DNA from: Actinomycetes bacterium
GTDB taxonomy: Bacteria; Actinomycetota; Actinomycetes; S36-B12
DNA: 64,000 nt
Direction: 5' to 3'
Assembly: GCA_024639145.1 (NCBI GenBank)
Contig: JAHEIZ010000008.1
Span: 11,754 to 75,753 of the forward strand
The notes under the pieces are model-generated. The model was not told the DNA's origin. It was given only the letters and a program-made list of their open reading frames with translations, and did no database searches. Position 1 is the first letter of the stretch. The number at the start of each line of letters is the position of its first letter. Made by a program: the position numbers and the translations under genes. Below, one piece after another: positions 10,156 to 61,156 of this stretch.

Positions 10156-10262
10156 GTGCCCACAATGTCATGACTCGCAGGGCGACTTGCCCGAACCTCC
10201 CTGAGGAGGGCGGGGAATCGCGTAACGTGATCGGCAAGAACGCCCAATCGGAGGAGATTGCA

Positions 10263-12065: not shown

Positions 12066-12090
12066 GCACGCGCCTCGATAGTCTGACTCC

Positions 12091-14372: not shown

Positions 14373-14435
14373 GGTAACACGGGATTTCGGGGGCCACCCG
14401 CGGGTCTCCCCAGGGGGAAAATCACATATTTCCCT

Positions 14436-14657
14436 CTAAGCGGGGCGCCGCCGTCGAGGGGCTCGTGAGGGCACCTCAGGGGCAGGCGGCACCAGGCGCA
14501 GGGGTGGAATCAGGCCGGAATCGGCCAACACGCCCAGGGCGCCGGCGTGCTCATCGGGGACGAAGGCCGCCGGGCTGACGGGGCCGAGGAGGACGGACAC
14601 CACGCAGTCAGAGCACGCGGGGGCCGGAGCCTGGCAGGTACCGCAGTCAATGTTCAT
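14436..14657 (-). CDS. Small cysteine-rich protein (CxxC-x6-CxxC)
   Basis: 73 aa. MNIDCGTCQAPAPACSDCVVSVLLG... resembles a small protein family conserved in actinobacteria. GC-rich third codon positions. Confidence 0.55.
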   Translation of the reverse strand: MNIDCGTCQAPAPACSDCVVSVLLGPVSPAAFVPDEHAGALGVLADSGLIPPLRLVPPAPEVPSRAPRRRRPA

Positions 14658-14681
14658 GCCGTCAGGCTAGGAACAGGGTCT

Positions 14682-14775
14682 GACAACGGTCAGGGACCGC
14701 CGTCTCCCGCAGCCTCGGGTTGTGCTCCGACGACGGTCAGGGACCGCCGTCTCCCGCGGATTCCTGGGTCGGCCC
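14682..14775. repeat. Decayed about-47-bp tandem duplication copying the 3-prime end (with stop) of the zinc-ribbon gene
   Basis: gacAacggtcagggaccgccgtctcccgc (14682-14710) versus gacGacggtcagggaccgccgtctcccgc (14729-14757), 28/29 identical. The following 18 nt show only weak similarity. Confidence 0.85.
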
Positions 14776-15009
14776 GCCGAACTCCGGACGGGCCACGATC
14801 TCGATGCGATCAGCCGAGCCGCACCAGCGGCAGGTGACCGACTCGATGGTCTCGCTGAGGATCTCGGTCTCGTCGACCGAGGGCTCACCTGCCATGTCGA
14901 GGTGCCAGAACTCGCGTACGCGCGATGACCGCACGATGTCGAATCGAGTGAGGTTGCCGCAATGCGCGCAGCGCAGGCGACTCTTGGCATCAGGCAGGGT
15001 CACGGACAC
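14737..15009 (-). CDS. Small zinc-ribbon protein
   Basis: 90 aa with CAHCG ... CRWCG (two CxxC pairs). Coding-like codon bias. Confidence 0.6.
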   Translation of the reverse strand: MSVTLPDAKSRLRCAHCGNLTRFDIVRSSRVREFWHLDMAGEPSVDETEILSETIESVTCRWCGSADRIEIVARPEFGGPTQESAGDGGP

Positions 15010-15061
15010 CCCGCAAGCCTATCGGTCGTGCCGTGGGCCGATGTCCGCCCCGTGACGTAGC

Positions 15062-16888
15062 GTGCACCGCGTGATCGACGACACGCCCCTGCAGCTCAGC
15101 ATTGCTGATGCGGGCACCTCACTGGCCGAGGCCGTGTTCGTCGTCGTTGACCTCGAGACCACCGGCGGATCCCCTGCCGAGGCGGGCATTACCGAGATCG
15201 GCGCTGTGAAGGTGCAGGGCGGCGAGGTCATCGGCGAGTTCACGACCCTGGTGAATCCCGGCGTGCCGATTCCCCCGTTCATTGCCTCGCTGACCGGCAT
15301 CACCAACGCAACAGTTGCATCCGCGCCCCGCCTGGGAACGGCACTGCCCGCATTCCTGGAGTTCGCCGGTGATGCGATCCTCGTCGCCCACAACGCGCCC
15401 TATGACATCGGTTTCCTCAAGGGCGCCTGCACAATCCACGAGCAGCCATGGCGCGGCAATCGAGTACTCGATACCGCCCGCCTTGCCCGCGTGATCCTGC
15501 ACCGCGATGAAGTGCGCAACTGCAAGCTCTCCACCTTGGCCGCGTACTTCCGCACCACCGTCTCGCCCACGCACCGCGCCTTCGACGATGCACGAGCCAC
15601 GGCCGATGTCCTGCATCGGCTCATCGAGCGCGTCGGCAACCTCGGCGTGTACTCGGTGGAGGATCTCCAGGCGCTTTCCGGCCGCGTCAGCACCGCGCAG
15701 CGCACCAAGCGTCATCTCGCCGATGGCCTGCCCGCCAAGCCCGGTGTCTATGTCTTCAATGATCCCGAAGGCAAGGCGCTCTACGTCGGCACCTCGCGCA
15801 ATATCCGCACGCGCGTGCGCAGTTACTTCACTGCCTCCGAGCAACGCCGGCGCATGAGCGAGATGATCGGCATCGCAGTGTCGGTCACTCCCATCGTCTG
15901 CGCCACGCCGCTTGAGGCACGCATTCGAGAACTTCGCTTGATCAATGAGCAGCAGCCGCGCTACAACCGCGCATCTCGTCGGGCTGATGCGAAGCCGTGG
16001 GTGAAGCTCACCGCCGAGGCGGCACCACGCCTGTCGATCGTCAGCACTCTCACCGACGACATGAGCGACGGAGCGATGTATCTCGGCCCATTCAGCTCAC
16101 GCTCTAGCGCGCAGTCGGCGATTGAGGCGATCATGTGCGCCTTTCCGATCCGCACATGCACCCCGAAGCTGGCACGCGCACCACGAGCACTTCATGCCGG
16201 GTGTATTCGTCACGAACTCGGCAGCTGCGCGGCCCCGTGCATGAAGGACGGCGATCACGGCGATTACGCACGCACAATCGAGCAGGTGCGCAAGGTGTTC
16301 AACGGTGATGCGCGCGTGGTGGTGAGCGCTGTCGAGAATCGCATGCGTGAACTCTCAGCCGAGACTCGCTTCGAGGATGCCGCGACCTGGCGCGATTACC
16401 TCGCGACTTTCAGCCGCATCAGCATGCGCACTCATGCACTTCGCATGCTGTCCACCAACGCCGAGATCATTGCCGCTCGTCCGACTGACGAGCGTGGCTG
16501 GGAAATCCACTGCATTCGCTACGGCTCGCTCGCCGGCGCGATCACGGTTGAGCCTGGTGTGGATCCGCGACCTTCGGTGGAAATCCTTTCTGATGCATCA
16601 TCTGTCTTCGAGCGTCCCGCAACACCCGTGCCTGTCGGTCTGGTCGAGGAGGCGACGGAATTGCTGAGCTGGCTCGAGTCCGAGGGCACTCGTCTGGTGC
16701 GCGTCAGTGACGCACTATCGATCCCGATGAACTGCGGCGGCGACGCTGCGGCGCATCTACTGAACTTGCAAAAGCGCATGCAGCGCAGTTCATTACATGA
16801 CGCCGACTTCGCCTGGATGTCGCGTTACTCGAGGCCCTCGGGCCCGGTTCCGACTTCATCAGTGAGTCGGATCAGCGCTGTCGGCTAA
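15062..16888 (+). CDS. DEDDh 3-prime-5-prime exonuclease (DnaQ-like) fused to a GIY-YIG (UvrC N-terminal-like) nuclease domain
   Basis: 608 aa. Exo motifs are VVVDLETTG, VAHNAPYDIGFL and HRAFDDARATADV, followed by the GIY-YIG region PGVYVFND...ALYVGTSRNIRTRVRSYF. Architecture and position match Rv2191. Confidence 0.8.
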   Translation: MHRVIDDTPLQLSIADAGTSLAEAVFVVVDLETTGGSPAEAGITEIGAVKVQGGEVIGEFTTLVNPGVPIPPFIASLTGITNATVASAPRLGTALPAFLEFAGDAILVAHNAPYDIGFLKGACTIHEQPWRGNRVLDTARLARVILHRDEVRNCKLSTLAAYFRTTVSPTHRAFDDARATADVLHRLIERVGNLGVYSVEDLQALSGRVSTAQRTKRHLADGLPAKPGVYVFNDPEGKALYVGTSRNIRTRVRSYFTASEQRRRMSEMIGIAVSVTPIVCATPLEARIRELRLINEQQPRYNRASRRADAKPWVKLTAEAAPRLSIVSTLTDDMSDGAMYLGPFSSRSSAQSAIEAIMCAFPIRTCTPKLARAPRALHAGCIRHELGSCAAPCMKDGDHGDYARTIEQVRKVFNGDARVVVSAVENRMRELSAETRFEDAATWRDYLATFSRISMRTHALRMLSTNAEIIAARPTDERGWEIHCIRYGSLAGAITVEPGVDPRPSVEILSDASSVFERPATPVPVGLVEEATELLSWLESEGTRLVRVSDALSIPMNCGGDAAAHLLNLQKRMQRSSLHDADFAWMSRYSRPSGPVPTSSVSRISAVG

Positions 16889-18003: not shown

Positions 18004-18498
18004 CTAGACGGTGGCGACAGCCTGGCGCGCGGCCAGGAGTCGAACGACCTCGCCCGCGAGGGCAATGCCATTGATGGGGTGGGCCACGGCCGCATCAGCA
18101 CGCGACCAGGTGGCCAGCCAGGCATCCTGAGGGCGCCCGACCAGCACGAGGATCGGCGGGCACTTGTAGATCTCGTCCTTGAGCTGGCGCGCAATGCCGA
18201 GCCCACCGGCAGGGGCTGCCTCGCCATCGAGAATGAGCAGGTCGAATCCGCCCTTGTCGACGGCTGAGATCACGGCCGGCTCGGTGGCGCACTCGGTGTA
18301 CTCGATGACCGGCAGGTCAGCGCTCGGGCGCGGGCCCAACGCCAGGTAGACCTGCTGGCGCACGGTGCGGTCATCGCTGTAGACGAGCACCTTGAGCGGA
18401 CGGGCGGGGGCGGAATTCTGGCTCACGGGCCGAACTCTATCCGTGAGGAGCCACCTCGTGACGACGACCCCGAGGACCTGAGGTGACAAAGGCGACAT
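18004..18498 (-). CDS. Stand-alone receiver-like (CheY-fold) protein
   Basis: VLVYSDD ... FDLLILDG pattern of a response-regulator receiver, with no output domain. The start is uncertain (alternative GTG 18426). Confidence 0.5.
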   Translation of the reverse strand: MSPLSPQVLGVVVTRWLLTDRVRPVSQNSAPARPLKVLVYSDDRTVRQQVYLALGPRPSADLPVIEYTECATEPAVISAVDKGGFDLLILDGEAAPAGGLGIARQLKDEIYKCPPILVLVGRPQDAWLATWSRADAAVAHPINGIALAGEVVRLLAARQAVATV

Positions 18499-36585: not shown

Positions 36586-36792
36586 TTACTGAGGGGACAA
36601 GCCCATCGGGCCGTAAACGACCCGATCCCCCTCGAGAAGGCTCACCGAGTCAGCACCTGAGGTAATCAGGCTCGACCAGCTTTCGCCCATCCATGCCTCG
36701 GCGTCTGCCTGGGTCGGGAATTCGGTATGAGCCTCGGCAATATTCAGGTCGGTGCCATCGAGTGCGTGGCAGATCCAGGTGAAACCCATCAC
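36586..36792 (-). CDS. Small hypothetical protein
   Basis: 68 aa with coding-like third-position GC. Its stop abuts the DUF3043 stop. No motif recognised. Confidence 0.45.
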   Translation of the reverse strand: MMGFTWICHALDGTDLNIAEAHTEFPTQADAEAWMGESWSSLITSGADSVSLLEGDRVVYGPMGLSPQ

Positions 36793-36834: not shown

Positions 36835-37002
36835 GGTTCAGGAACAACTGAATCGACGTATTCGAGATCCAGGGGAAGTCCGGTGTGAATCCGGCGCTGT
36901 CCCGCAACCGTGATCCCTCACTGAGGGCGAGTCGGAGCACCTGGCGAGTACGAGCGGCTCTATCCGTCGAGGTAACGGGACGAGTCAGGTCATTCCTGAA
37001 TT
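36835..37002 (+). promoter_or_regulatory. Cobalamin (adenosylcobalamin-type) riboswitch aptamer
   Basis: Core AGGGGAAGUCCGGUGUGAAUCCGGCGCUGUCCCGCAACCGUGA (36871-36913) and B12 box GAGUCGGAGCACCUGGC (36929-36945). The P1 candidate pairs ttcaggaa (36837-36844) with ttcctgaa (36993-37000). Confidence 0.9.
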
Positions 37003-37003
37003 G

Positions 37004-37040
37004 TCCCTCCGTGCATTCGTGCCGGGGGGATTCTGCTTTT
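37004..37040 (+). terminator. Putative riboswitch expression-platform terminator
   Basis: tccctccg (37004-37011) pairs with ccgggggga (37022-37030), including one G-U pair and an inner gca/tgc stem. It is followed by ttctgctttt. Confidence 0.5.
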
Positions 37041-37088
37041 CAGGATTCCTGCATGTTCACGACCGCTCCATGAGAAACGCAGGAACAC

Positions 37089-38159
37089 ATGTCACGCACC
37101 ACTCGCACCATCGCCGCCAGTGCGGCACTCGCGATCGCCGCATTCGGCCTCGCCTCGCCTGCTCACGCGAACCACGCACCGGGCACCACCGGCCTCTACG
37201 GCACCGCCGATCCCGGCTACGACGGCGTCTACCGTCAGTCGCTCGCGATCATTGGGCTCACGTCCAACGGCGTGAAGCCGTCTCCGGCCGCGATCGGGTG
37301 GCTCATCAGCCAGCAGTGCAAGGACGGCAGCTTCCAGGAGTTCCGCGCCGACACCACGAAGCCATGCGACACGGTCGATGCAGTCAACGGCAAGGGTCCG
37401 GACTCCAATGCCACGTCGCTTGCCGTGCTCGCACTGATGTCCATCGACAACACCAATCTCGCCTCGAATACCGTGATGAATGCCGTCGTGAAGGCAGCGA
37501 GCTCGGCGGGCCTGTGGCTCCGAAAGAACCAGCACTCCGACGGCGGCTGGGCGTACTACGCCGGATCGCCCTCCGATTCAAGTTCGACCGGGCTGGCCCT
37601 GGCAGCGCTCAGCACCCAGGCACCCAATCGCCAGCAGCCGAATATCGTCAAGGGCAGCAAGTTCCTCGCCTCGCTCATCATCGCGTGCGGCTCCACCGAC
37701 GGCGGCGCACTCGTGTACCAGAAGGGCAGCAAGGCAGACGGGCTCTCAAGCGCACAGGGGTTGTACGGGCTCGTCGGCAGTGTTCCGGTCAGAGCCGCAG
37801 GCAAGCTGGGCCCGACACCGAAGTGCGCGGGCAATCCGGCCAACAAGATTGCCAGCCACCTGTCTTCGAAGTTGCTGAGCAACGGCACCCTTGCTTCGGC
37901 ATTCGGCGATGGCCCTGACTACACCGCAACCGCAACGGCTGTCGTGGATCTCTCTGCCGCAGGCGTTGCCAAGGCCGCGGTCGCGAAGGCACTTGCCGCA
38001 CTGAAGTCGAATGCCGCGAGCTACGCGACTCCGGCCGCAGGCGCCAATCCCGCTGCGCTCGGACTCCTACTGAGCGCCGCGAAGGCCACCGGCTCGAATC
38101 CGAAGGCCTTCGGCGGAGTCGATCTGGTCTCGGCACTCGTCAACAGCGAGCACAAGTAA
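37089..38159 (+). CDS. Secreted alpha/alpha-toroid protein (prenyltransferase / squalene-oxidase repeat family)
   Basis: 356 aa with a Sec signal ending SPAHA. Repeated motifs of the type WLxxQQxxDGSF / WLRKNQHSDGGW, with interleaved TSLAVLAL / TGLALAAL helices. Confidence 0.7.
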   Translation: MSRTTRTIAASAALAIAAFGLASPAHANHAPGTTGLYGTADPGYDGVYRQSLAIIGLTSNGVKPSPAAIGWLISQQCKDGSFQEFRADTTKPCDTVDAVNGKGPDSNATSLAVLALMSIDNTNLASNTVMNAVVKAASSAGLWLRKNQHSDGGWAYYAGSPSDSSSTGLALAALSTQAPNRQQPNIVKGSKFLASLIIACGSTDGGALVYQKGSKADGLSSAQGLYGLVGSVPVRAAGKLGPTPKCAGNPANKIASHLSSKLLSNGTLASAFGDGPDYTATATAVVDLSAAGVAKAAVAKALAALKSNAASYATPAAGANPAALGLLLSAAKATGSNPKAFGGVDLVSALVNSEHK

Positions 38160-38821
38160 TGCGCACGGCTCGCGCGGCAGCAGCGCTCATCGGCATCGCG
38201 ATTCTCGCGCTGACGGCGATCGCGCCTGCCGCGCGAGCCGAGTCCGCCTATCGCTATTGGACCTACTGGCAGGGCAATGCCGCGTCGTGGCAATTCGGAA
38301 CCCAAGGTCCCGCCACGAGTAACCCAGCCGACGGCGCCGTCGAAGGCTGGCGCTTCGCCGTCTCCGGGGCAGCCGGCAGCACGCAAAGCCAGCCATCGAT
38401 GAGCCCCGCCACAGCCTTCGCAGACCTCTGCGGCTCGACTCCTCCACTCTCGGGCAAGAAGCGAATCGCACTCGTGGTCGATCCGGGCTACGCATCGGAG
38501 GCACCGGACGGCGAGGACCCCATCGGGGCGGTGAGCACCTGCGTCGTCGCCGATGAGGATGCGAGCGGTTACGACATCCTGCGATCCCAGCTCACCGTGC
38601 GAGTCGAAGGCGGCCTGGTGTGTGGCATCGGCGGCTTCCCGGCACACGAGTGCGCGCCCGTGATCGAGGTCAGCGAGGAGTCTGCGAAGCCAGCCAGCCA
38701 GGCCGTGAACCAGAGACCCAGCAAGGATTCCCTCACTTCCTTCGGCTCCATCTCGCTGACCGTTCTTGTCGTGCTCTTCGGCATCGGACTCTCCATTGCC
38801 CTGTGGTGGAGGCGCAAGTGA
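38159..38821 (+). CDS. Secreted, C-terminally membrane-anchored protein (Trp-rich YWTYW motif; resembles the actinobacterial family often annotated SCO2322-like)
   Basis: 220 aa. Signal peptide ending PAARA, N-terminal YRYWTYWQGNAASWQFG...DGAVEGWRF, and a C-terminal TM helix followed by WWRRK. TAATG junction with the upstream gene. Confidence 0.6.
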   Translation: MRTARAAAALIGIAILALTAIAPAARAESAYRYWTYWQGNAASWQFGTQGPATSNPADGAVEGWRFAVSGAAGSTQSQPSMSPATAFADLCGSTPPLSGKKRIALVVDPGYASEAPDGEDPIGAVSTCVVADEDASGYDILRSQLTVRVEGGLVCGIGGFPAHECAPVIEVSEESAKPASQAVNQRPSKDSLTSFGSISLTVLVVLFGIGLSIALWWRRK

Positions 38822-39957
38822 CCGATCAGCGATTCGCCCTGGGTGCCGCCGCGATTCCGCGGTGGCTTCACCCGGGTGCGTGGTGGGCATGGGCGCTGGG
38901 CCTGGCCGCTGCGGCAAGTCGCACCACGAATCCCCTGCTCCTGATTCTCATCGTGTGCTGTGCGGCCATCGTCGTGTCAGCACGCAAGCCCGATGCGCCG
39001 TGGGCGCGCTCATTCGGCTTCTTCCTGCGCCTCGGCGTCGTGATCATCATCGTGCGCGTGCTCGCGCAGATTATTTTCGGCGCCTCGCTCGGCACGACCG
39101 TCATCGTCAATGCACCCGGTATCGCACTTCCCGACTGGTTCGCAGGCGTCCGCCTCGGCGGTGAGATCACCCTGGAGAGCCTGCTCTTCGCGCTCTTCGA
39201 CGGCCTGCGGCTTGCGGCGATCATCGCCTGCGTGGGCGCGGCGAATTCCCTCGCGTCGCCAAGTCGACTTCTCAAGTCGGTTCCGGCAGCGTTGTACGAA
39301 GTGGGAGTCAGCGTCGTTGTCGCACTCACATTCGCTCCGCAACTCGTGAGTGACGTCTCGCGAGTCAGCACCGCACGTCGACTTCGCGGCCGGACCACTC
39401 ATGGCATCCGCGCGATCGCCGGGTCGACCGTTCCCGTCTTCGAGGGCGCACTCGAGCGCTCCGTGCTGCTGGCGGCCGCCATGGACTCCCGCGGCTACGG
39501 TCGCACGGCCGGCATCAGCTCTTCGGTGCGTCGAGTCGCTTCGGGCTTTCTTCTGCTCGGCCTCGTTGCCGCGTGCATCGGCACGTACGCGATGGTGTCC
39601 GCGGGTTCCCCTGCGCTTCTCGGCCTGCCCTTGCTGGCCGTCGGCATCGCGGTGAGCATCCTCGGCATCACGATGGCCGCACGTCGATCGGTCCGCACCC
39701 GTTACCGCCCTGATCCCTGGTGGCTGGCCGAGTGGCTGGTGGCCGCGGCCGGCCTGTGCACCGCCGCCGTATTTACGTGGGCTACCTGGTCCCATCTGGC
39801 GGGCATCGACACCCCCACCGACCCGGCCCGATGGCCGCTGCTTCCGCTGATCCCGGTTCTTGCACTCGTGCTCGCAGCCTCGCCGGCCATCATCGCGCCG
39901 CGACTTCCGCAGGCACTTCGACCCGTGCACGTGCGCGAGGAAGCGGCGGTCGCATGA
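38818..39957 (+). CDS. ECF transporter transmembrane (T) component, CbiQ/EcfT family
   Basis: The GTG start overlaps the upstream stop (GTGA). Polytopic, with a coupling-helix ARxxRG motif (TARRLRGR). The 66 upstream codons of the track ORF are rejected. Confidence 0.8.
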   Translation: MTDQRFALGAAAIPRWLHPGAWWAWALGLAAAASRTTNPLLLILIVCCAAIVVSARKPDAPWARSFGFFLRLGVVIIIVRVLAQIIFGASLGTTVIVNAPGIALPDWFAGVRLGGEITLESLLFALFDGLRLAAIIACVGAANSLASPSRLLKSVPAALYEVGVSVVVALTFAPQLVSDVSRVSTARRLRGRTTHGIRAIAGSTVPVFEGALERSVLLAAAMDSRGYGRTAGISSSVRRVASGFLLLGLVAACIGTYAMVSAGSPALLGLPLLAVGIAVSILGITMAARRSVRTRYRPDPWWLAEWLVAAAGLCTAAVFTWATWSHLAGIDTPTDPARWPLLPLIPVLALVLAASPAIIAPRLPQALRPVHVREEAAVA

Positions 39958-41576
39958 TCGAGTTCGAGAACGTCTCCATCACCTACGCGGGCGCCGACTC
40001 ACCGGTGCTCGTGAATGCCTCGGTGTCCATTCCCGAGGGCGAACTCGTTCTCGTAGTCGGACGCACGGGCAGCGGCAAAACGACATTCCTTCGGGCGATC
40101 AACGGACTCGTGCCTCACTTCACCGGGGGAACGCTCTCAGGTCGGGTCACCATTGACGGTCGCGATACGGCCACGCACCCGCCGCGCGAGCTTGCCGATC
40201 TGGTCGGCATCGTGCCGCAGGATCCGATGAGCGGTTTCGTCACCGACACCGTCGAGGATGAACTCGCGTACGGAATGGAATGCCTGGGGATCGCACCCGA
40301 GGTCATGCGACGCCGCGTGGAGGAGACCCTTGACCTTCTCGGCCTCGCCGAGCTTCGCCATCGCGCACTTCTCTCACTGTCGGGCGGCCAGCGACAGCGG
40401 GTTGCCATCGGTGCGGTACTCACCTCGCATCCGAAGGTTCTCGTTCTCGACGAACCCACCTCCGCACTAGACCCGGGTGCCGCCGAGGAGGTTCTCGCAG
40501 CACTGCAACGACTCGTGCACGATCTCGGCATCACGGTCGTGCTTGCCGAGCATCGGCTCGAACGAGTGGTGCAGTACGCCGATCGCATGATCGTGATCCC
40601 GGGCGCCGGCGAGCCACTCGTGTACGGCACTCCGGCCGATGTCATGCGACTTGCTCCCATTGCGCCGCCCGTCGTGGAACTCGGACGACTGGCCGGCTGG
40701 AGCCCGCTCCCGCTGTCGGTGAGGGATGCACGACGCGCCGCGGGACCGCTGCGCGATCTGCTGATCGGGCGCACGCCTCCCCTGCGCGTGGTTGATGGCG
40801 GCCAGTCGCGCGAGGAACTCGCAGTCACCGAGAACCTCGTCGTGCGCTACGGCACCTTCACTGCACTGCGCGGCGTCACTACGTCGATTCGCCGCGGCGA
40901 GATCGTGGCACTCATGGGCCGAAATGGTGCAGGCAAGTCGACCCTGCTCTCCTCCCTCGTAGGCCTGCGCAGCACCACGACAGGGGCGGTGTCGACCAGC
41001 GGCCACGACCCGCGCACCCTGAAGCCACGCGAACTCGTGCACTCGGTGGGCCTGGTGCCGCAGGATCCAGGCGATCTCCTCGAGGCCACGAGCGTGGCCG
41101 ATGAATGCCGCGCCGCCGACCACGACGCCGAGGCGGAGCCCGGCACTACCCGAGCGCTACTCGCCCTGCTCGCACCCGACGTGCATGACGGCACTCACCC
41201 GCGCGATCTCTCCGAGGGGCAGCGGCTGCTTCTGGCACTCGCGGTGGTGCTCGCTGCGCGACCACCGCTGCTTCTTCTTGATGAGCCGACGCGCGGGCTC
41301 GACTACCCGACGAAGTCACGGCTCGTCACGGTTCTCAGCGATCTTGCCGACGCCGGCCACGGTGTCGTGCTCGCCACGCATGATGTCGAGTTGGCCGCAG
41401 AGGTTGCCACCCGGGTAATGGTCATCGCTGACGGGGAGATCGTCGCCGACGGACCCACGTCTGCAGTGCTCGTCTCGTCACCGATGTTCGCGCCGCAGGT
41501 GGCCAAGGTGCTCGCCCCGGAGCCGTGGCTCACCGTCACCGACGTGGCGTCTGCCCTCGACGGCGAGGCCGTCTGA
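39954..41576 (+). CDS. Fused duplicated ECF/ABC ATPase (EcfA-EcfA')
   Basis: 540 aa from ATG 39954 (ATGA overlap). Two Walker A sites (GRTGSGKTT, GRNGAGKST), two signature motifs (LSGGQRQR, LSEGQRLL) and two Walker B sites (LVLDEPT, LLLDEPT). Confidence 0.9.
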   Translation: MIEFENVSITYAGADSPVLVNASVSIPEGELVLVVGRTGSGKTTFLRAINGLVPHFTGGTLSGRVTIDGRDTATHPPRELADLVGIVPQDPMSGFVTDTVEDELAYGMECLGIAPEVMRRRVEETLDLLGLAELRHRALLSLSGGQRQRVAIGAVLTSHPKVLVLDEPTSALDPGAAEEVLAALQRLVHDLGITVVLAEHRLERVVQYADRMIVIPGAGEPLVYGTPADVMRLAPIAPPVVELGRLAGWSPLPLSVRDARRAAGPLRDLLIGRTPPLRVVDGGQSREELAVTENLVVRYGTFTALRGVTTSIRRGEIVALMGRNGAGKSTLLSSLVGLRSTTTGAVSTSGHDPRTLKPRELVHSVGLVPQDPGDLLEATSVADECRAADHDAEAEPGTTRALLALLAPDVHDGTHPRDLSEGQRLLLALAVVLAARPPLLLLDEPTRGLDYPTKSRLVTVLSDLADAGHGVVLATHDVELAAEVATRVMVIADGEIVADGPTSAVLVSSPMFAPQVAKVLAPEPWLTVTDVASALDGEAV

Positions 41577-41577
41577 C

Positions 41578-42396
41578 ATGAGCGGGCCACAGGTGCACGC
41601 GATGAGACTCGGCACGAGATCACGCATCGCCATCGCGTTGACCTCGCTCATCGGGATCATCGCCTTCGCGTGGCCTTTGCTCGCCTCCCCGGAGTCCGCA
41701 GTGGTCGCGCATTCGAATGACGCGCCGTGGCTCTTCGCGATCATCGTGCCGCTGCTCATGCTCGTGCTGCTCGCCGAGCTCTCCGACGGCGGCATGGACG
41801 CGAAGTCGATCGCACTTCTCGGCGTGATGGCTGCCGTGATCGCGGCCCTGCGCCCGCTGGGCGGCGGGATCGCCGGACTAGAACCGATCTGGATGGTGTT
41901 GATCCTCGGCGGTCGCGCCCTCGGTCCGGGATTCGGCTTCTCCCTCGGCGCGATCTCCCTGTTCGCGTCCGCACTTCTGACCGGCGGAGTCGGGCCATGG
42001 CTGCCCTTCCAGATGCTCGGTGCGGCATGGGTCGGGCTGGGTGCCGGTCTCCTTCCGCGCGCCACGGGCAAGCGCGAGCTCGCACTTCTCGCCGGTTACG
42101 GGGCTGTCGTCAGCCTCCTGTACGGGATGCTGCTCAACCTCTGGTTCTGGCCCTTCGTCTCCGGCCTGCCCGATCAGATTGCGTTCGCTGCCGGCGCTCC
42201 GCTGGGCGAGAACTTCCTGCACTGGTTCAGGTTCACGATTGTCACCAGCCTCGGTTACGACATCCCGCGAGCGATTCTCACAGTTGTGCTGATCCTCATC
42301 GCGGGAAAGCCCGTGCTCCTCGCCTTGCGCAGGGTCTCGCGCAAGGCGGCCTTCGAACCCGCGATCACCTTCGTCCCCGGGACTACGAGCGCATGA
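41578..42396 (+). CDS. ECF transporter substrate-specific (S) component, unusually long
   Basis: 272 aa, hydrophobic and Gly/Ala-rich, with about 6-7 TM segments. It sits directly after the A-A' gene (TGAcATG). The assignment rests on context and topology only. Confidence 0.6.
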   Translation: MSGPQVHAMRLGTRSRIAIALTSLIGIIAFAWPLLASPESAVVAHSNDAPWLFAIIVPLLMLVLLAELSDGGMDAKSIALLGVMAAVIAALRPLGGGIAGLEPIWMVLILGGRALGPGFGFSLGAISLFASALLTGGVGPWLPFQMLGAAWVGLGAGLLPRATGKRELALLAGYGAVVSLLYGMLLNLWFWPFVSGLPDQIAFAAGAPLGENFLHWFRFTIVTSLGYDIPRAILTVVLILIAGKPVLLALRRVSRKAAFEPAITFVPGTTSA

Positions 42397-43775
42397 GAGT
42401 CCGCCTGCTCGGTACCGGCTCGGCCGATGGCTGGCCGAATCCTTTCTGCGAGTGCCGTTCATGCGAGGAAGAGCGCACAGTCGGCCGGCTACGGATGCCG
42501 ACAGCTGCGCTCGTCGACGACATCCTGCTCATCGACAGCGGACCGACCGCGCCGTACAGCGCATCGCTCGGCGGTATCTCCCTTCGCCGAGTCGAGCATC
42601 TCGTTCTCACTCACGGGCACCCCGATCACCTGGCCCCGTCCATCCTGCTGTGGCGCGAATGGGTCTCCGGCCTCACAGTGCTCCACGTGTGGGGCCCGTC
42701 GATGGCGATCGATCTCTGCCGTGACTGGGTTGGCCCCGATTCTCCGGTCGAATTCCATGTGATTGCAGCCGGCGATTGCGTCACTCTCGCGACTGCCCAC
42801 GACAGTTACGAGCTTCGAGCTCTCGAAGCCAATCATGATCCACGCCGGATTGACTCGATCGCGGGCGAAGCACTGCTCTACGACCTTCAGTCACCCAGGG
42901 GCGAGCGACTTCTCTACGCCACCGACACCGGGCCGTTCACCCCGGCAATGCTCGAATCGATGAGAGGGCGTCAATACGACGTCGTGTTGATTGACGAGAG
43001 CTTCGGCGACAAGACGGACCATGGCACCGGTCACTTCGATCTCGATAGCCTGCCTGTGACACTGCACGCTGCACGCGAGTGCGCTGCTACCTCTGATCAC
43101 ACACGTGTGATCGCCGTGCACTTGAGCCATCACAATCCGCCGACCGACGAGCTGCGCGCGCGACTGCACGGAATGGGAGCCGAGCTCATGGACGATCTCG
43201 CAGTGATCGACACCGCTGCATCGCGCAGCCGTCACCTCATCACCGGCGGAGCGCGCTCGGGCAAGTCCTCGCACGCCGAGCGACTGGCCGACCGGCACCC
43301 GAAGGTCGTCTATGTCGCCACCGGCGGAGAGCGCCCTAACGATCTCGAATGGGCACAGCGCATCGCCGCTCACCGCGAGCGCCGGCCGTCCCACTGGACG
43401 ACCATCGAGACAGCCGACCTCGAGACGACCCTGGCCACCGCACCCGCCGATGCCGTGGTCCTCGTCGACTGCATCGGGCTCTGGCTCACGGCACAGCTCG
43501 ACTCGGCCGACGCCTGGGGTCGCGAGACTGATTCCGACATGCGTGCGCAGGTCGAGTCCGCGATCACTGCCTTGATCGAGGCCGTGCGTGATTGCCCCGC
43601 CTCGGTCATCCTCGTCACGAATGAGGTCGGCATGGATCTCGTGCCCCCGCACGCGGGCGGCCGGCTCTTCCGCGACCTGCTCGGCATCACCAACTCACGA
43701 CTGGCCGACGCCTGCGACCGTGTCACCCTCGTCGTCGCGGGCCGCGCCCTCGACCTGCCCAGGAGCTCACCATGA
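42393..43775 (+). CDS. cobU: Fusion protein: N-terminal PhnP-like metallo-beta-lactamase-fold phosphodiesterase domain + C-terminal adenosylcobinamide kinase / adenosylcobinamide-phosphate guanylyltransferase (CobU/CobP)
   Basis: 460 aa from ATG 42393 (ATGA overlap). The N-domain (to about 43227) has LGTGSADGWPNPFCECRSC and THGHPDH. The C-domain has ITGGARSGKS, IAAHRERRPSHW (guanylyl-His region) and VTNEVGMDLVP. Confidence 0.85.
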   Translation: MRVRLLGTGSADGWPNPFCECRSCEEERTVGRLRMPTAALVDDILLIDSGPTAPYSASLGGISLRRVEHLVLTHGHPDHLAPSILLWREWVSGLTVLHVWGPSMAIDLCRDWVGPDSPVEFHVIAAGDCVTLATAHDSYELRALEANHDPRRIDSIAGEALLYDLQSPRGERLLYATDTGPFTPAMLESMRGRQYDVVLIDESFGDKTDHGTGHFDLDSLPVTLHAARECAATSDHTRVIAVHLSHHNPPTDELRARLHGMGAELMDDLAVIDTAASRSRHLITGGARSGKSSHAERLADRHPKVVYVATGGERPNDLEWAQRIAAHRERRPSHWTTIETADLETTLATAPADAVVLVDCIGLWLTAQLDSADAWGRETDSDMRAQVESAITALIEAVRDCPASVILVTNEVGMDLVPPHAGGRLFRDLLGITNSRLADACDRVTLVVAGRALDLPRSSP

Positions 43776-44848
43776 CCGATCTCGCCTCTCTCATCGACCT
43801 GATCGGTGCCCCGAGCGCCGTTGCCGCCGACGAGGCGCGCGCACGACAGGGAATCCTCACCAAGCCGACCGGCGCACTCGGCCGGCTCGAGGAGCTATCG
43901 ATTTGGGTGTGCTCTGTGCAAGGTGCCTGCCCGCCGCGGGTCTTCGCGCGACCGCGCGTGGTGATCTTCGCCGGAGATCACGGTGTCGCTCGAACGGCGC
44001 AGACCTCCGCTTATCCCCCCGAGGTCACGGCGCAGATGGTCCTGAACTTCGTGCATGGCGGAGCCGCCGTCAACGTGCTGGCACGACAGGCCGGTGCGAG
44101 CGTGCGCGTTGTCGACGTGAGCGTCGATGCCGATCCCGACTACGCGCTCTCCATCGCGCCCGAGGTCGTCGCCGATCGCATCCGTCGCGGCTCGGGCTCG
44201 ATCGATCGGGAGGACGCGATGACACGTGCCGAGACCGAGGCGGCCTTCGCACTCGGTCGTCGCATTGCCGACGAGGAGATCGACTCGGGTGCCGACCTGC
44301 TCATTCCTGGGGACATGGGCATCGGCAACACCACCCCCGCCGCTGCCCTCATCGGTTTGCTCGCGAATGCCGATGCGGCAACGGTCACCGGCAAGGGCAC
44401 CGGCATCGATGACACGACCTGGATGCGCAAGTGCGCAGCCGTGCGCGATGCGATGCGCCGCGGCTCCGAGCACAAGGGCGATCCGCTCGCGCTTCTCACT
44501 GCCATCGGCTCCCCCGACTTCGCTGCGGCCACCGGCTTCCTGCTGCAGTCCGCAGCACGCGGCGTACCCGTGATCCTCGACGGCACGATCAGCTCTGCAT
44601 GCGCACTCGTCGCCGATCGCATCAGCTACCGCGCGAAGGCCTGGTGGCTGGCCGGGCATCGCTCCACCGAGCCCGCGCAGTCCATTGCGCTCGATCGCCT
44701 CGATCTCGTGCCCGTCGTCGACTACGGCATGCGGCTGGGCGAGGGCACGGGCGCGCTGCTCGCCCTGCAGATCGTGCAGTCGGCCACCGCGACACTGCGC
44801 GAGATGGCGACCTTCGGCGAGGCCGGCGTGAGCGATCGCGATGCCTGA
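43772..44848 (+). CDS. cobT: Nicotinate-nucleotide--dimethylbenzimidazole phosphoribosyltransferase
   Basis: 358 aa. Contains LTKPTGALGRLEEL, GDHGV and GDMGIGNTT motifs. Confidence 0.9.
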   Translation: MTDLASLIDLIGAPSAVAADEARARQGILTKPTGALGRLEELSIWVCSVQGACPPRVFARPRVVIFAGDHGVARTAQTSAYPPEVTAQMVLNFVHGGAAVNVLARQAGASVRVVDVSVDADPDYALSIAPEVVADRIRRGSGSIDREDAMTRAETEAAFALGRRIADEEIDSGADLLIPGDMGIGNTTPAAALIGLLANADAATVTGKGTGIDDTTWMRKCAAVRDAMRRGSEHKGDPLALLTAIGSPDFAAATGFLLQSAARGVPVILDGTISSACALVADRISYRAKAWWLAGHRSTEPAQSIALDRLDLVPVVDYGMRLGEGTGALLALQIVQSATATLREMATFGEAGVSDRDA

Positions 44849-45587
44849 TGCCCTGCGCCTGGCGATCGGCACGCTGACCCGACTACCGGTTCCCGCGCCG
44901 CGGCAGGTCGATCGCCGCACCGCGGGCATCGCGATGAGCCAGTCGCCCTTGGTCGCGCTCGTGCTCGCTGTCGTCTGCGGACTCCCGCTGCTCATCACGC
45001 CCGATCGACCGCTGCTCGCACTGGTGCTCAGCATCTGCGCCTTCGCCCTGCTCGCCTGGGCCACGCGCGCACTCCACCTCGACGGGCTCGCCGACACCGC
45101 GGACGCACTCGGCAGCGGCAGGCCGGCGGCGACGGCGCTCGAGATCGCGCGCAAGTCGGATATCGGCCCCTTCGGCGTCATCGTGCTGATGCTCGCCCTC
45201 CTGATCGACATCGCCGCGGTGGCCTCACTACCCGAGGGCCGCGATGCCTATCTCGCCTTCGTGCTCGCGATCGTCATCAGCAGAGTCGCGCTCACCCTCG
45301 CCTGCACGCGAATCTGGCCCGCTGCCCGCACTGATGGCCTCGGCGCCGTGGTGGCCGGGTCGGTACCTGTCGCCATCGCCGCTGCGTGGACGATCCTCGG
45401 TCTCGCGCTCGCCTGGTGGCTCCTCGGCGCAGCAGCCGTTCTCGCGGCAGCGCTCGGGCTCCTGGCAGGAATCCTCGTGCTCGTGATCGCGCGTCGCCGA
45501 CTGGGCGGAGTCACCGGTGACGTCCTGGGCGCAACGATCGAGATCAGCCTGACCGCCGCCTTGCTGGCACTCGCGCTCCTTGCCTAA
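44841..45587 (+). CDS. cobS: Adenosylcobinamide-GDP ribazoletransferase (cobalamin synthase)
   Basis: 248 aa polytopic protein. Contains LHLDGLADTADAL and GGVTGDVLGA motifs. 8-nt overlap with cobT. Confidence 0.9.
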   Translation: MPDALRLAIGTLTRLPVPAPRQVDRRTAGIAMSQSPLVALVLAVVCGLPLLITPDRPLLALVLSICAFALLAWATRALHLDGLADTADALGSGRPAATALEIARKSDIGPFGVIVLMLALLIDIAAVASLPEGRDAYLAFVLAIVISRVALTLACTRIWPAARTDGLGAVVAGSVPVAIAAAWTILGLALAWWLLGAAAVLAAALGLLAGILVLVIARRRLGGVTGDVLGATIEISLTAALLALALLA

Positions 45588-45625: not shown

Positions 45626-46771
45626 ATGAGTAGGCCACTCGAGTCCGTCGCGCATGCGCACCGACTCGCGAAGCGCCGCCTGCCCGGCTCCGTCTACTCC
45701 TTCATCGAGGGCGGCAATGAGGCACGCATCACCGTGCGCGCGAATGTCGAGGCCTTCGAGGAGATCGGGTTCCGCCCGCGCGTCTCGAGCACTCAGTCGG
45801 CGCCGGATCCGCGCACCACGGTGCTCGGACGCGAGATCGCCATGCCGCTCATCACGACTCCTGCAGGCTTCATCCGCATCGCGAATCCGGCCGGTGAGCT
45901 CGCGGTCGCGCGGGCAGCAGCACGCGCCGGCATCCCGACCGGCGTGAGCATCCTTGCGAGCACCGCCATCGAGGAGATCACCGCGGTCAATCCCGATACC
46001 TGGTTCCAGCTCTACATGATCGGCGGTCGCGAGGGCACCGCTGCCGCGATCGAGCGAGCGCGCCAGGCAGGCGTCCGCGTGCTGATCGTCACCGTCGACC
46101 TGGCTGCCGGAACCGGCGGCAGCGACACCCGCAAGGCAGCGATGCCTCCCGGTCGCGTCAATCTCGCCAGCGCCGTGCGCCACTCGCCCGAGATGGTGAC
46201 TCATCCGCGCTGGGCGCTGAGCTTCTTGCGCGGCGGTCTCGAGCTGACCGCTCCGAACGTGCCCGGGGTCGACGGCCGCTCCATGACAATTGCCGAGGGC
46301 AGCGCCGCACTGCGCGAGCATCCGCCGACGTGGGACGACATCGCCTTCATCCGCGGGCTCTGGGATGGCCCGCTCGTCGTGAAGGGCATCGTCACCGGTG
46401 ATGACGCTCGTCGTGCGGCTGACCTCGGCGTCGACGCGGTGTCGGTCTCGAATCACGGAGGCAATGGCCTCGACGGCGCACCGGCCACGATCCGCGCCCT
46501 GCCCGAGGTCGTCGCGGCAGTCGGCGATCGCATCGAGGTGCTGATGGACGGCGGCGTACGCCGTGGCGGCGATGTCGTGAAAGCGGTGTCACTCGGAGCG
46601 CGCGCCGTGCTGATCGGTCGCCCGTACATCTGGGCACTCGCGGCCGGCGGCGAGCAGGGTGTCGACGAGATGCTCGCGCTCTTCCGCAAGGGCATCTCGG
46701 GAACGATGGCCCTGCTCGATCGACGCAGTGTCAGCGAGCTCGATGCGAGTGCGCTGATCCTGCGGAGGTAG
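45626..46771 (+). CDS. FMN-dependent alpha-hydroxy-acid dehydrogenase/oxidase family protein
   Basis: 381 aa. TIM-barrel FMN family signatures (SNHGG, GGVRRGGDV, IGRPY). Confidence 0.8.
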   Translation: MSRPLESVAHAHRLAKRRLPGSVYSFIEGGNEARITVRANVEAFEEIGFRPRVSSTQSAPDPRTTVLGREIAMPLITTPAGFIRIANPAGELAVARAAARAGIPTGVSILASTAIEEITAVNPDTWFQLYMIGGREGTAAAIERARQAGVRVLIVTVDLAAGTGGSDTRKAAMPPGRVNLASAVRHSPEMVTHPRWALSFLRGGLELTAPNVPGVDGRSMTIAEGSAALREHPPTWDDIAFIRGLWDGPLVVKGIVTGDDARRAADLGVDAVSVSNHGGNGLDGAPATIRALPEVVAAVGDRIEVLMDGGVRRGGDVVKAVSLGARAVLIGRPYIWALAAGGEQGVDEMLALFRKGISGTMALLDRRSVSELDASALILRR

Positions 46772-59784: not shown

Positions 59785-59830
59785 TTCATTTATGACCCGC
59801 ATCCGAGGGACACCATGCGATAGTTCACAA

Positions 59831-61156
59831 ATGGGCGCTGATCTCGAGAGCACTGCGCCTATTCCCGTGGTCGCGGAGTCCACTCCGCCGATATCACCCC
59901 GTGTCCATGGCCCCACTCGCTCCATCGCGCTCGCCGTTATTGCTGCACTTCTGTGGTCAGCGGCTTTGTGGACAGGCTGGACCTTCCAGCGCACCTGGTC
60001 AGCATCCACTGGCGAGCCCGCCAGCGTCATCGTCGCGACCTGGATGCGCGATAACCACATGGGCCCGGTCGTCGCTCAGCTCGAGAATCTCTACTACCGC
60101 TATGTCGACAAGCCCAAGGTCGGCGGCGATCCGACCATCTCCGCGGATCTCTCTCAGGAAGATCCGGCTGAGACTGACACAGCAGACCTCGGGCCAAGCC
60201 CCGTTGCATCCGCAAGCGGTGGCGTGGCAAGCGCTGCGCCCAGCGCACCGGCTGAGCGGGATCATCTTCAGCCGCCTCCGCCGCTTATCTCTCCCGTCGC
60301 GAACCCTGAGCCCCTCGAAGGCCAGTGGCAGCCGGTCGCATCGAGGGTCGATGGCATTCCGGCCGTCTACGTCACACGGGTGCGGGCCGACGCTGAGCAC
60401 ACGTCGTACTACGCCTCGGTAATGTGGATCGATACGGTGCTGACGAAGGCATTGTTCGTTCCGGGCTACGAGGAGCCGGCCGGCGGGCCGAATCCCTACG
60501 ACGGCGCACTTCCCAAGACGCTCTGGCCATACGTGCTCGCGAACTTCAATGGGGCATTCCGACTCGAGGACACCCTGGGCGGCTACGCATACGACGGAGA
60601 AATCGTCGCCCCGTTGGTCAAGGGCAAGGGCACGACAGTCTTCTACCGCGATGGCAGAGTCAAGGTTGGCAAGTGGGGCCGCGACTTCCCTGAGATCACC
60701 GATGACATGATCGCGGTGCGACAGAACCTCAATTTGATCGTCGATAAGGGCGAGTCGAAGGTCAACAGCGCCAGCGACAACGTGGTGTGGGGCGCGACCA
60801 CCGACAAGGAAAGCCTCGCCTGGCGCGCGGCCATCGGTCAGCGCGAGGACGGCAGCATCGTCTACATCGGCTCGCCTTACCTGTCAGCGGCCGGACTTGC
60901 CGACACCCTCGTGAGCGCGGGCGTGCGCGAGGCGATGGTGCTCGACATGAACTCCTGGTGGACGGCCGGCTTCTACTTCCGACACGCGAAGGACGGCTCG
61001 CCGAAGTGCCGAAAGCTGGAACCCACGATTCCCGAGGGCTGCGATCGCTTCCTTCGCCCGTACAAGCGCGACAGCTTTCAATTCCTGGGTAATCCTGAAT
61101 CGGGCCTACTCGATACGACCTGGCCAGTTCCTCAGGCCTCGTCGACGACGCCGTAG
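59831..61156 (+). CDS. Membrane-anchored phosphodiester glycosidase-family (DUF2233-like) protein
   Basis: N-terminal TM helix, and a C-terminal region with NGAFRLED...GYAYDG, WRAAIGQREDGSIVY and AMVLDMNSWW. The start is ATG 59831 (the track ORF starts at 59792). Confidence 0.55.
   Translation: MGADLESTAPIPVVAESTPPISPRVHGPTRSIALAVIAALLWSAALWTGWTFQRTWSASTGEPASVIVATWMRDNHMGPVVAQLENLYYRYVDKPKVGGDPTISADLSQEDPAETDTADLGPSPVASASGGVASAAPSAPAERDHLQPPPPLISPVANPEPLEGQWQPVASRVDGIPAVYVTRVRADAEHTSYYASVMWIDTVLTKALFVPGYEEPAGGPNPYDGALPKTLWPYVLANFNGAFRLEDTLGGYAYDGEIVAPLVKGKGTTVFYRDGRVKVGKWGRDFPEITDDMIAVRQNLNLIVDKGESKVNSASDNVVWGATTDKESLAWRAAIGQREDGSIVYIGSPYLSAAGLADTLVSAGVREAMVLDMNSWWTAGFYFRHAKDGSPKCRKLEPTIPEGCDRFLRPYKRDSFQFLGNPESGLLDTTWPVPQASSTTP

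Follow-up and report, generated by a model that had tools for sequence, protein, structure and literature searches.

A stretch of 64,000 nucleotides from an Actinomycetes bacterium of the GTDB lineage S36-B12 (contig JAHEIZ010000008.1; this whole stretch is referred to below as the window) contains an adenosylcobalamin (AdoCbl) riboswitch followed, on the same strand, by eight closely packed genes. We consider it likely that the riboswitch and the genes constitute a cobalamin-repressed operon for the import of corrinoids and the assembly of their nucleotide loop. The operon encodes an energy-coupling factor (ECF) importer, two extracytoplasmic proteins and the loop-assembly enzymes CobU, CobT and CobS, the first of which is fused to a domain of the metallo-beta-lactamase (MBL) fold. 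The leader elements and the genes, called g1 to g8 in the following, are listed here by position in the window.

36847..36989, plus strand: AdoCbl (cobalamin) riboswitch aptamer, Rfam RF01482
37003..37040, plus strand: terminator-like hairpin GUCCCUCCG...CGGGGGGA with the tail UUCUGCUUUU, from the leader fold and hairpin energy
37046..37085, plus strand: second leader hairpin, from the fold of 36985-37095
37089..38159, plus strand: g1, secreted alpha/alpha-toroid protein of 356 residues, a relative of the SCO2321 family
38159..38821, plus strand: g2, SCO2322-family protein of 220 residues
38818..39957, plus strand: g3, EcfT, 379 residues
39954..41576, plus strand: g4, fused EcfA-EcfA' ATPase, 540 residues
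41578..42396, plus strand: g5, ECF S component of 272 residues, the predicted corrinoid-binding subunit
42393..43775, plus strand: g6, PhnP-like MBL domain (residues 1-276) fused to CobU (residues 279-456), which is adenosylcobinamide kinase and adenosylcobinamide-phosphate guanylyltransferase
43772..44848, plus strand: g7, CobT (nicotinate mononucleotide:dimethylbenzimidazole phosphoribosyltransferase)
44841..45587, plus strand: g8, CobS (adenosylcobinamide-GDP ribazoletransferase)

Riboswitch, operon and distribution

The riboswitch was found by cmscan as a full-length match to RF01482 (36847-36989, plus strand, model positions 1-149), with 62.0 bits against a gathering score of 50 and an E-value of 5.4e-09. 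RF01482 belongs, with RF00174, to the cobalamin riboswitch clan CL00101; no other Rfam family reaches its gathering score anywhere in the window. A first-pass annotation, made from the letters alone, had placed a cobalamin riboswitch about 90 nucleotides upstream of the first gene; the riboswitch is confirmed, while the gap between the end of the aptamer and the ATG of g1 (37089) measures 99 nucleotides. The seven gene junctions read exactly as that annotation had given them: TAATG (38157-38161), GTGA (38818-38821), ATGA (39954-39957), TGACATG (41574-41580), ATGA (42393-42396), ATGA (43772-43775) and the 8-nucleotide overlap ATGCCTGA (44841-44848). At each of them the neighboring genes overlap or sit 1 nucleotide apart. 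All eight protein sequences are present verbatim, with the same start codons, in public gene calls, and the gene content that had been proposed for them is borne out by Pfam, NCBIfam and structure models.

A simple scan of the operon returned seven weak terminator-like sites, counting both strands, against an expectation of 3.0 ± 2.0. The four on the plus strand all lie inside coding sequence, at -4.7 to -10.5 kcal/mol as opposed to -17.5 kcal/mol for the leader hairpin, and no junction carries a run of more than three T. Neither the scan nor the T-runs at the junctions revealed a strong internal terminator in the operon, and the earlier statement that there is no internal hairpin terminator essentially holds. 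These observations support the view of the eight genes as one riboswitch-fronted, tightly coupled unit. The strongest of the intragenic hairpins (42420-42438, plus strand, 7 base pairs, -10.5 kcal/mol, tail AUCCUUUCUG) lies 27 nucleotides into g6, just past the boundary between importer and enzyme genes, and it overlaps the codons of the invariant residues GSADGWPNPF. It may be a mere consequence of coding constraint, or it may act as a weak attenuator dividing the import genes from the salvage genes.

Immediately 3' of the aptamer, the leader forms the GC-rich hairpin (37003-37030) that precedes the tail UUCUGCUUUU. In 13 related loci, too, the leader has a hairpin with a T-rich tail at this point; its stem sequence varies from locus to locus, and four of the nine predicted pairs show compensatory double changes. 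Because the position of the hairpin is kept with compensatory changes, transcription attenuation is likely in the clade of the window, and the element at 37003-37040 is probably its platform. The leaders of Streptomyces and Kribbella are without this terminator-like hairpin. In the second leader hairpin, UUCCUGC (37046-37052) pairs with GCAGGAA and covers the AGGAA ribosome-binding site of g1. This hairpin appears in both the minimum-free-energy and the centroid structure of 36985-37095 (the whole leader has a z of -2.09), and by these folds it may add a translational control of g1. On the other side of the aptamer, between the DUF3043 gene and the riboswitch, there is an open reading frame of 47 residues on the minus strand (36650-36792; MGFTWICHALDGTDLNIAEAHTEFPTQADAEAWMGESWSSLITSG...) with a strong upstream GGAAGGAAG. 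Many related loci share it, with identities of 37-91%, though its orientation changes from lineage to lineage; it has no Pfam match.

The operon is one form of a much more common arrangement. A profile scan with g2, using one genome per species, gave at least 566 actinobacterial loci, of which the best 80 were kept for comparison. Their architectures, determined by local tblastn, are as follows.

33 loci, mostly Kribbella: riboswitch-g2-EcfT-EcfAA'-S-CobU-CobS, without g1, the MBL domain and CobT
14 loci, Streptomyces among them: the cassette g1-g2-EcfT-EcfAA'-S alone, arranged as in SCO2321-25
10 complete and 4 truncated loci: all eight genes laid out as in the window, with MBL-CobU as a fusion
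The rest of the 80 loci: truncated contigs or variants

The cassette is therefore widespread in Actinomycetota and not specific to one lineage. The first-pass annotation had credited the lineage of the window with building the module, which does not hold: the g1-g5 cassette occurs at no fewer than 566 loci, the Streptomyces SCO2321-25 genes and Kribbella among them, and the eight-gene form is found in at least 10 other genomes. In 47 of the 80 loci the cassette shares an operon with CobU and CobS, and two separate architectures make this connection to loop assembly, one with MBL-CobU-CobT-CobS (10 complete and 4 truncated loci) and the other with CobU-CobS (33 loci). Upstream of the riboswitch, the Kribbella-type loci have an unrelated gene, for an aldo/keto reductase. 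The short operon of this type was seen at about 9700-15700 in the loci numbered L030-L059 and in others. Two loci with g1-g2 and no adjacent ECF genes were considered as a possible alternative transporter type, and none was revealed; one of them (L021) has asd and then cobU-T-S, and the neighbors in the other (L065) have no Pfam matches.

The link to the riboswitch is just as general. A custom covariance model, R1, was built from 26 orthologous leaders; it scores the window riboswitch at 152.7 bits, and among the 80 related loci, each from a different genome, it finds a riboswitch directly 5' of the cassette in 74. Of the six loci without a match, three lie on contigs whose sequence starts only at g2. 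Riboswitch and cassette thus go together almost without exception, far more often than chance would allow. The earlier remark on the content of the operon is also supported: it fits corrinoid capture, import and nucleotide-loop assembly. A regular-expression screen had suggested that Kribbella and most Streptomyces loci lack the riboswitch, and Rfam at its gathering threshold had been positive in only two of seven loci; R1 and a local Rfam search exposed both results as failures of sensitivity, and the suggestion was rejected. Two loci (L068 and L077) have a riboswitch above the Rfam threshold, and the Kribbella locus L030 falls just below the cutoff in the local Rfam search (RF00174, 29.3 bits against 31.5, E = 1.2e-05). 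The Kribbella loci L034, L046 and L055 gave no riboswitch match.

Most bacteria with a need for B12 are unable to synthesize it, and its acquisition by Gram-positive bacteria is poorly understood, the best-characterized importers being ECF-CbrT and the mycobacterial BacA. Hundreds of actinobacterial genomes carry the present cassette, among them those of relatives of abundant freshwater plankton, of Streptomyces and of Kribbella, and the cassette is almost always controlled by a B12 riboswitch; it is therefore probably a major route of B12 acquisition in actinobacteria.

The importer and its extracytoplasmic partners

The products of g3, g4 and g5 have the composition of a group I (dedicated) ECF transporter, in which EcfT, two ECF-type ATPase domains and an S component are encoded in the same operon. 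The match of g3 to Pfam CbiQ (PF02361; 34.4 bits against a cutoff of 25) spans only residues 21-229. The protein has the two Ala-Arg-Gly coupling motifs in its sequence, as ARRLRG and AMDSRG, and a C-terminal extension of about 150 residues in which a hydropathy scan places about four extra transmembrane helices. Two ABC_tran domains make up g4, according to Pfam. Its best NCBIfam matches are the ECF ATPases TIGR04521 and TIGR04520, at about 292 bits and below the cutoffs of 315-330 for these single-domain equivalogs, and both IMG and NCBI annotate it as an ECF ATP-binding protein. The g5 gene adjoins that of EcfA-A' with a 1-nucleotide spacer. Its product is called an "ECF transporter S component" by NCBI and IMG and has a marginal match to PF12822 (32.7 bits against 30.7) over residues 77-241, ahead of which a transmembrane scan shows two extra N-terminal helices. 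The extra helices of g3 and g5 are atypical for ECF subunits, and g2 or g1 might dock there.

The two proteins encoded ahead of the importer both have signal peptides and conserved cysteines. The g1 protein matches NCBIfam NF053823 (SCO2321) at 220 bits, below the cutoff of 300, over model positions 5-352 of 405; by this profile score it is a relative of the SCO2321 family and not an equivalog. It has weak Pfam matches to SQHop_cyclase, Prenyltrans and TED. Its AlphaFold2 model has a mean confidence score (pLDDT) of 91, with residues 1-26 disordered, which is consistent with a signal peptide. The best Foldseek matches of the model are drimenyl-diphosphate synthase (of the class II terpene cyclases), squalene-hopene cyclase and the complement C3d TED, at a TM-score of about 0.5. 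The DxDD-type cyclase motif is absent from the sequence, as is a C-terminal membrane anchor; many homologues carry LPXTG anchors.

The g2 protein belongs to the SCO2322 family (NCBIfam NF040672, 143.2 bits against a cutoff of 85), and PF28005 is found on all its homologues in precomputed annotation. It has a signal peptide, an ectodomain of about 135 residues, a low-complexity linker and a C-terminal transmembrane helix at 197-215. The AlphaFold2 model of the ectodomain has a pLDDT of 88-98 and is flanked by an N-terminal helix and by the transmembrane helix. Foldseek gave no solved structural relative (best E = 0.69). At 50% identity the family falls into 1,351 clusters. The motif YRYWTYW and four cysteines are invariant; together with W44 and W64 the motif forms an aromatic-rich invariant set. 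Across the Kribbella-type and other layouts, it is g2 that always accompanies the ECF genes. A 730-residue protein, P0522, matches g1 over residues 47-373 (38% identity, E = 1e-43) and the g2 profile over residues 454-653 (E = 2.9e-50). It may be a natural g1-g2 fusion, or else an artefact of a frameshift or of gene calling, and it is a single representative.

It is most likely, judging from these features, that g1 and g2 bind a scarce ligand extracellularly and deliver it to the S component. We infer this capture role because the proteins have signal peptides and conserved disulfide cysteines, because g2 has the YRYWTYW motif, and because there are LPXTG-anchored homologues of g1 and the P0522 fusion. 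There is a smaller but real chance that the two proteins belong to the module in another capacity, as assembly or stabilizing factors, as factors for passage through the envelope, or as extracellular processing enzymes. The fold of g1 is one that is shared by enzymes (terpene cyclases, glycosidases) as well as by binding modules, the extra transmembrane helices of EcfT and the S component could dock such partners, and in 33 loci g1 is dispensed with. Such a role would also suit proteins that do not resemble a known B12 binder by profile or Foldseek. However, a cyclase-type enzyme is not what one would expect of g1 without the DxDD motif, both proteins are extracytoplasmic and rich in disulfides, and an aromatic-rich invariant face such as that of g2 is typical of surfaces that contact ligands or proteins. 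The LPXTG-anchored g1 homologues suggest, by analogy only, a relay from cell wall to membrane like that of the heme Isd systems. A further idea, that the pair is a split transcobalamin with g1 as the alpha6/alpha6 domain and g2 as the beta domain, was rejected on sequence and fold. No match to PF01122 or DUF4430 (PF14478) at E <= 1 was found in 48 members of the g1 family and 41 of the g2 family, the 50 best Foldseek matches of g1 do not include transcobalamin, g2 has no fold match in the PDB, and a profile search of the PDB found no B12 carrier.

The first-pass annotation remarked that the two extracytoplasmic proteins and the fusion enzyme had no experimentally defined role. The literature agrees: we found no functional study of the SCO2321 and SCO2322 families, of accessory proteins of B12 ECF importers, or of the MBL-CobU fusion.

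Loop-assembly enzymes and the imported ligand

The assignments of g7 and g8 are straightforward. CobT is supported by Pfam DBI_PRT (414.6 bits), NF000996 (443.6 against 306) and TIGR03160 (397.8 against 319.3), and CobS by Pfam CobS (145.6 bits) and by TIGR00317 at 112 against 110, just above its cutoff. The more unusual enzyme is g6. Pfam recognizes Lactamase_B_2 (PF12706) and CobU in it, the MBL fold being also matched by PF00753, and the CobU half scores 181.2 bits against a cutoff of 161 with NF004469. The closest solved relatives are PhnP (3G1P, E = 1.4e-13, residues 3-246) for the MBL domain and Salmonella CobU (1C9K, E = 3.4e-45) for the other half; RNase Z and Apyc1 are the next named solved relatives of the MBL domain, and arylsulfatase is also among its relatives. 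Across 25 diverse fusions there is no variation in the HxHxDH motif, in the His and Asp ligands downstream of it or in the PhnP-type CxCxxC cluster, nor in the P-loop GGARSGKS and the histidine motif HRxRRP of the CobU half. A search with the MBL domain found 1,676 relatives, and the top 120 are nearly all MBL-CobU fusions of about 460 residues, named only CobU where they are named at all. The domain scores well below the PhnP equivalog TIGR03307 (43.5 bits against 272), and there are no phn genes in the window. Among the 80 loci, the MBL domain and CobT occur together in operons, and the operons with plain CobU are without both.

It is quite possible, although short of probable, that the MBL domain is a phosphodiesterase which splits the nucleotide loop of imported cobamides to adenosylcobinamide phosphate (AdoCbi-P), and so takes part in cobamide remodelling. 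Such a role is plausible because AdoCbi-P is the direct substrate of the guanylyltransferase in the fused CobU. The main alternative keeps the salvage reading of the operon and makes the MBL domain a phosphatase of the last step, acting on AdoCbl-5'-phosphate as an analogue of CobC, or a domain of some unrelated housekeeping function; we regard it as unlikely, though not negligible. There is no CobC-type phosphatase in the operon or the window, it would make sense to fuse a last-step enzyme to CobU, and the MBL superfamily is chemically versatile, as the arylsulfatase among the g6 relatives reminds us. However, the closest characterized relatives are the diesterases PhnP, RNase Z and Apyc1, and the Kribbella-type operons use a plain CobU even though every user of cobamides needs a last-step phosphatase. 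The product of a diesterase, moreover, would feed the fused CobU guanylyltransferase, as it does with CbiR, the remodelling enzyme of Akkermansia. If the proposed remodelling role is true, it changes the prediction of cobamide remodelling from genomes, where the domain is now hidden under a plain "CobU" annotation. In three other loci (L004, L020, L028) the MBL-CobU, CobT and CobS genes are absent and a short CobT-like open reading frame comes right after the S-component gene; about 140-170 of its residues match the C-terminal half of DBI_PRT at 38-42% identity, and it may be a truncated or divergent phosphoribosyltransferase.

That the imported ligand is a corrinoid we infer because of the riboswitch, the operon partners that act on corrinoids, the S component that is not CbiM, and the precedent of the acI Actinobacteria described below. 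Several points weigh against import and loop assembly of corrinoids, and it is worth setting them out together. The S component g5 has no significant similarity to CbrT of Lactobacillus delbrueckii (PDB 6FNP) or to any solved S component; searches of all PDB chains by phmmer and with a 25-sequence profile gave best E-values of 0.43 and 0.84, both for unrelated proteins. Profile and Foldseek searches likewise found no similarity of g1 or g2 to known corrinoid-binding proteins, and g1 is missing, and so dispensable, in the 33 Kribbella-type loci. The Streptomyces-type loci hold the cassette with no cob genes nearby. The operon is without an adenosyltransferase and a final phosphatase, and B12 riboswitches are known to control cobalt importers as well (PMC11477304).

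The last point opens an explanation that we consider improbable, in which the ECF system imports cobalt or another metal, g1 and g2 are comparable to CbiN or NikK/NikL, and the riboswitch represses metal uptake. Cobalamin riboswitches commonly govern ECF-type cobalt importers, for example in Clostridioides difficile (PMC11477304), and the topology of g2, with an N-terminal hydrophobic segment, an ectodomain and a C-terminal transmembrane helix, resembles that of NikL and CbiN. The Streptomyces-type cassette, with no salvage genes, would also suit a metal importer. Metal importers, moreover, are the only ECF systems known to have extracytoplasmic or extra membrane partners. The first-pass annotation overlooked them in stating that ECF importers normally need no extracytoplasmic partner; metal systems with the extra components CbiN and NikK/NikL were reportedly described by Rodionov in 2006. 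Against a metal, however, g5 is of the vitamin type PF12822 and not CbiM, and neither CbiM nor CbiN has a Pfam match in any of the eight proteins at E <= 0.01. The enzymes that share an operon with the cassette in 47 of the 80 loci act on corrinoids and not on cobalt, there are no ring-synthesis genes in the window, and acI relatives that have no B12 pathway keep the riboswitch-ECF module (PMC5301498).

Equally improbable is a lower-ligand importer of the kind proposed for CblT, which would bring in dimethylbenzimidazole (DMB) or alpha-ribazole to supply CobT and CobS while corrinoids enter by another way. The importer genes share a transcription unit with cobT and cobS and the window has no DMB synthase, but the CobU of the same operon requires an incoming corrinoid, 33 Kribbella-type operons have importer, CobU and CobS and no CobT, 14 Streptomyces-type loci have no loop genes, the window has no other candidate corrinoid importer, and two large extracytoplasmic proteins would seem excessive for a small membrane-permeant base. 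S components of the CblT type are said, in work of Rodionov in 2009 and of Gray and Escalante-Semerena in 2010, to fall in the broad ECF S-component class, which was counted in favor of such an importer.

With a corrinoid as the ligand, the operon could work in the following way. When AdoCbl is plentiful it would bind the aptamer, and the hairpin and U-tract at 37003-37040 would terminate transcription; the second hairpin may also occlude the ribosome-binding site of g1. When B12 is scarce, the eight genes would be transcribed on one message and translated with coupling across their overlapping stops and starts. The group I importer, with its EcfT, fused EcfA-A' and unusual seven-helix S component, would then import cobalamin, cobinamide or another cobamide, assisted by the secreted toroid g1 and the membrane-tethered g2, which would bind the ligand outside and pass it to the S component. 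Inside the cell, CobU would activate the corrinoid to AdoCbi-GDP, CobT would make alpha-ribazole phosphate from the preferred base, and CobS would join the two. The MBL domain might cleave imported cobamides that are not preferred, giving AdoCbi-P for the guanylyltransferase half-reaction of CobU.

Taken jointly, the boldest parts of this scheme would make MBL-CobU a third independently evolved cobamide-remodelling enzyme and g1 and g2 the first extracytoplasmic proteins for corrinoid capture or relay in an ECF importer, a combination that we put forward as a doubtful but worthwhile proposal. Were it true, g2 would be a previously unseen corrinoid-binding fold, and the pair would correspond, on the Gram-positive side, to BtuG/BtuH or to the Isd heme relay. 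Actinobacterial B12 auxotrophs of freshwater and soil could then convert any scavenged cobamide to the preferred one with four enzymes. The word "self-contained", which the first-pass annotation used of the module, is nevertheless too strong, as neither operon nor window encodes an adenosyltransferase, an AdoCbl-5'-phosphate phosphatase or a DMB synthase.

Genomic surroundings and comparison with known systems

The operon is set in a conserved block of actinobacterial housekeeping genes. By Pfam, one flank contains DAHP synthase, pfk, glpK, trpD, ctaE, qcrCAB, ctaCD, nadA and DUF3043, and the other gcvT, pepA, lpdA, an E2 lipoamide acyltransferase, lipB, lipA, glnA and glnE. Pfam annotation of the remaining called genes of the window finds no corrin-ring synthesis genes, as had been stated before, and no B12-dependent enzymes; a second candidate corrinoid importer is also absent from the window. 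No terminator was found after cobS, and one more gene begins 38 nucleotides downstream on the same strand:

45626..46771, plus strand: FMN-dependent alpha-hydroxy-acid dehydrogenase (PF01070), from Pfam

This gene may be co-transcribed as a ninth gene. It was rejected as a ninth member of the module and is a local passenger, because it is absent from the position after cobS in every relative examined; in related loci a convergent gcvT directly follows cobS. Elsewhere in the window, amid well-annotated housekeeping genes, two open reading frames supported by GC content at third codon positions have no Pfam match at E <= 1e-5 (59792-61156, plus strand, 454 residues; 18004-18498, minus strand, 164 residues).

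The same neighborhood is found in Mycobacterium tuberculosis, with DUF3043 upstream, with gcvT, pepA, the lipoamide genes and glnA/E downstream, and with cobT-cobS in the same place, a locus which we take to be Rv2206-Rv2208. A recent review states that mycobacteria have no known ECF-type cobamide transporter components and use Rv1819c/BacA instead (2025, PMC12713380), and the contrast drawn in the first-pass annotation, that only cobT-cobS occupy this slot in M. tuberculosis, is consistent with it.

There are several known systems to which parts of the operon can be compared. For the importer, the functional model is ECF-CbrT of L. delbrueckii, which was shown by experiment to import cobalamin and cobinamide (PMC5997447). 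CbrT is, however, a group II S component on a shared ECF module, whereas the window encodes a dedicated group I module with a fused A-A'. The window system differs further in that g5 has no similarity to CbrT at E <= 10 and carries two extra helices, in the extension of EcfT by 150 residues, in its two accessory extracytoplasmic proteins and in its riboswitch control. The metal importers CbiMNQO and NikKLMQO are similar in being group I ECF systems, often controlled by B12 riboswitches, with extra small membrane or extracytoplasmic components. Here, though, the S component is not CbiM or NikM, no CbiN was found, the partner proteins bear no relation to those of the metal systems, and the enzymes of the operon have corrinoids as their substrates.

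For the extracytoplasmic proteins, the nearest comparison in function is with BtuG and BtuH, accessory extracellular proteins which are encoded with B12 transporters and capture cobamides. They are surface B12-binding proteins of Bacteroidetes (PMC8941943). They differ from g1 and g2 in their folds and in their place at a Gram-negative outer membrane, and they work with the TonB-dependent BtuB and not with an ECF importer.

The MBL domain of g6 invites comparison with two enzymes. E. coli PhnP (3G1P) has in common with it the HxHxDH site and the CxCxxC structural-metal cluster; g6 is fused to CobU and the window has no phn (C-P lyase) context, and the likeness to PhnP extends to superfamily and active site only. 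CbiR of Akkermansia is a metal-dependent phosphodiesterase whose gene, in other phyla, neighbors cobU, cobT and cobS; it cleaves the nucleotide loop to AdoCbi-P and alpha-ribazole, a form of remodelling that bypasses the rebuilding of the linker (PMC7733943). CbiR is a TIM barrel of the AP-endonuclease-2 type and CbiZ, another remodelling enzyme, an amidohydrolase, whereas the N-terminal domain of g6 has the MBL fold of a PhnP relative fused to CobU; any equivalence between the MBL domain and CbiR would be a functional convergence.

A close precedent comes from the acI Actinobacteria, which do not synthesize B12 and in which an ECF module behind cobalamin/AdoCbl riboswitches was proposed as a cobalamin transporter (Kang et al. 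2017, PMC5301498). This comparison rests on the module as described and not on gene-by-gene homology. The two belong to the same broad lineage, and annotation assigns the nearest relatives of the window proteins to Candidatus Nanopelagicales. An ECF importer for B12 behind a riboswitch had thus already been proposed there. The proposal takes up one sentence of that paper, with no mention of the extracytoplasmic proteins, the atypical S component, MBL-CobU or the link to cobT and cobS. The system is thus partly anticipated by the literature, and what is new in it are the S component that is not of the CbrT kind, the enlarged membrane subunits, the two extracytoplasmic partners and the fusion of CobU to a putative phosphodiesterase.

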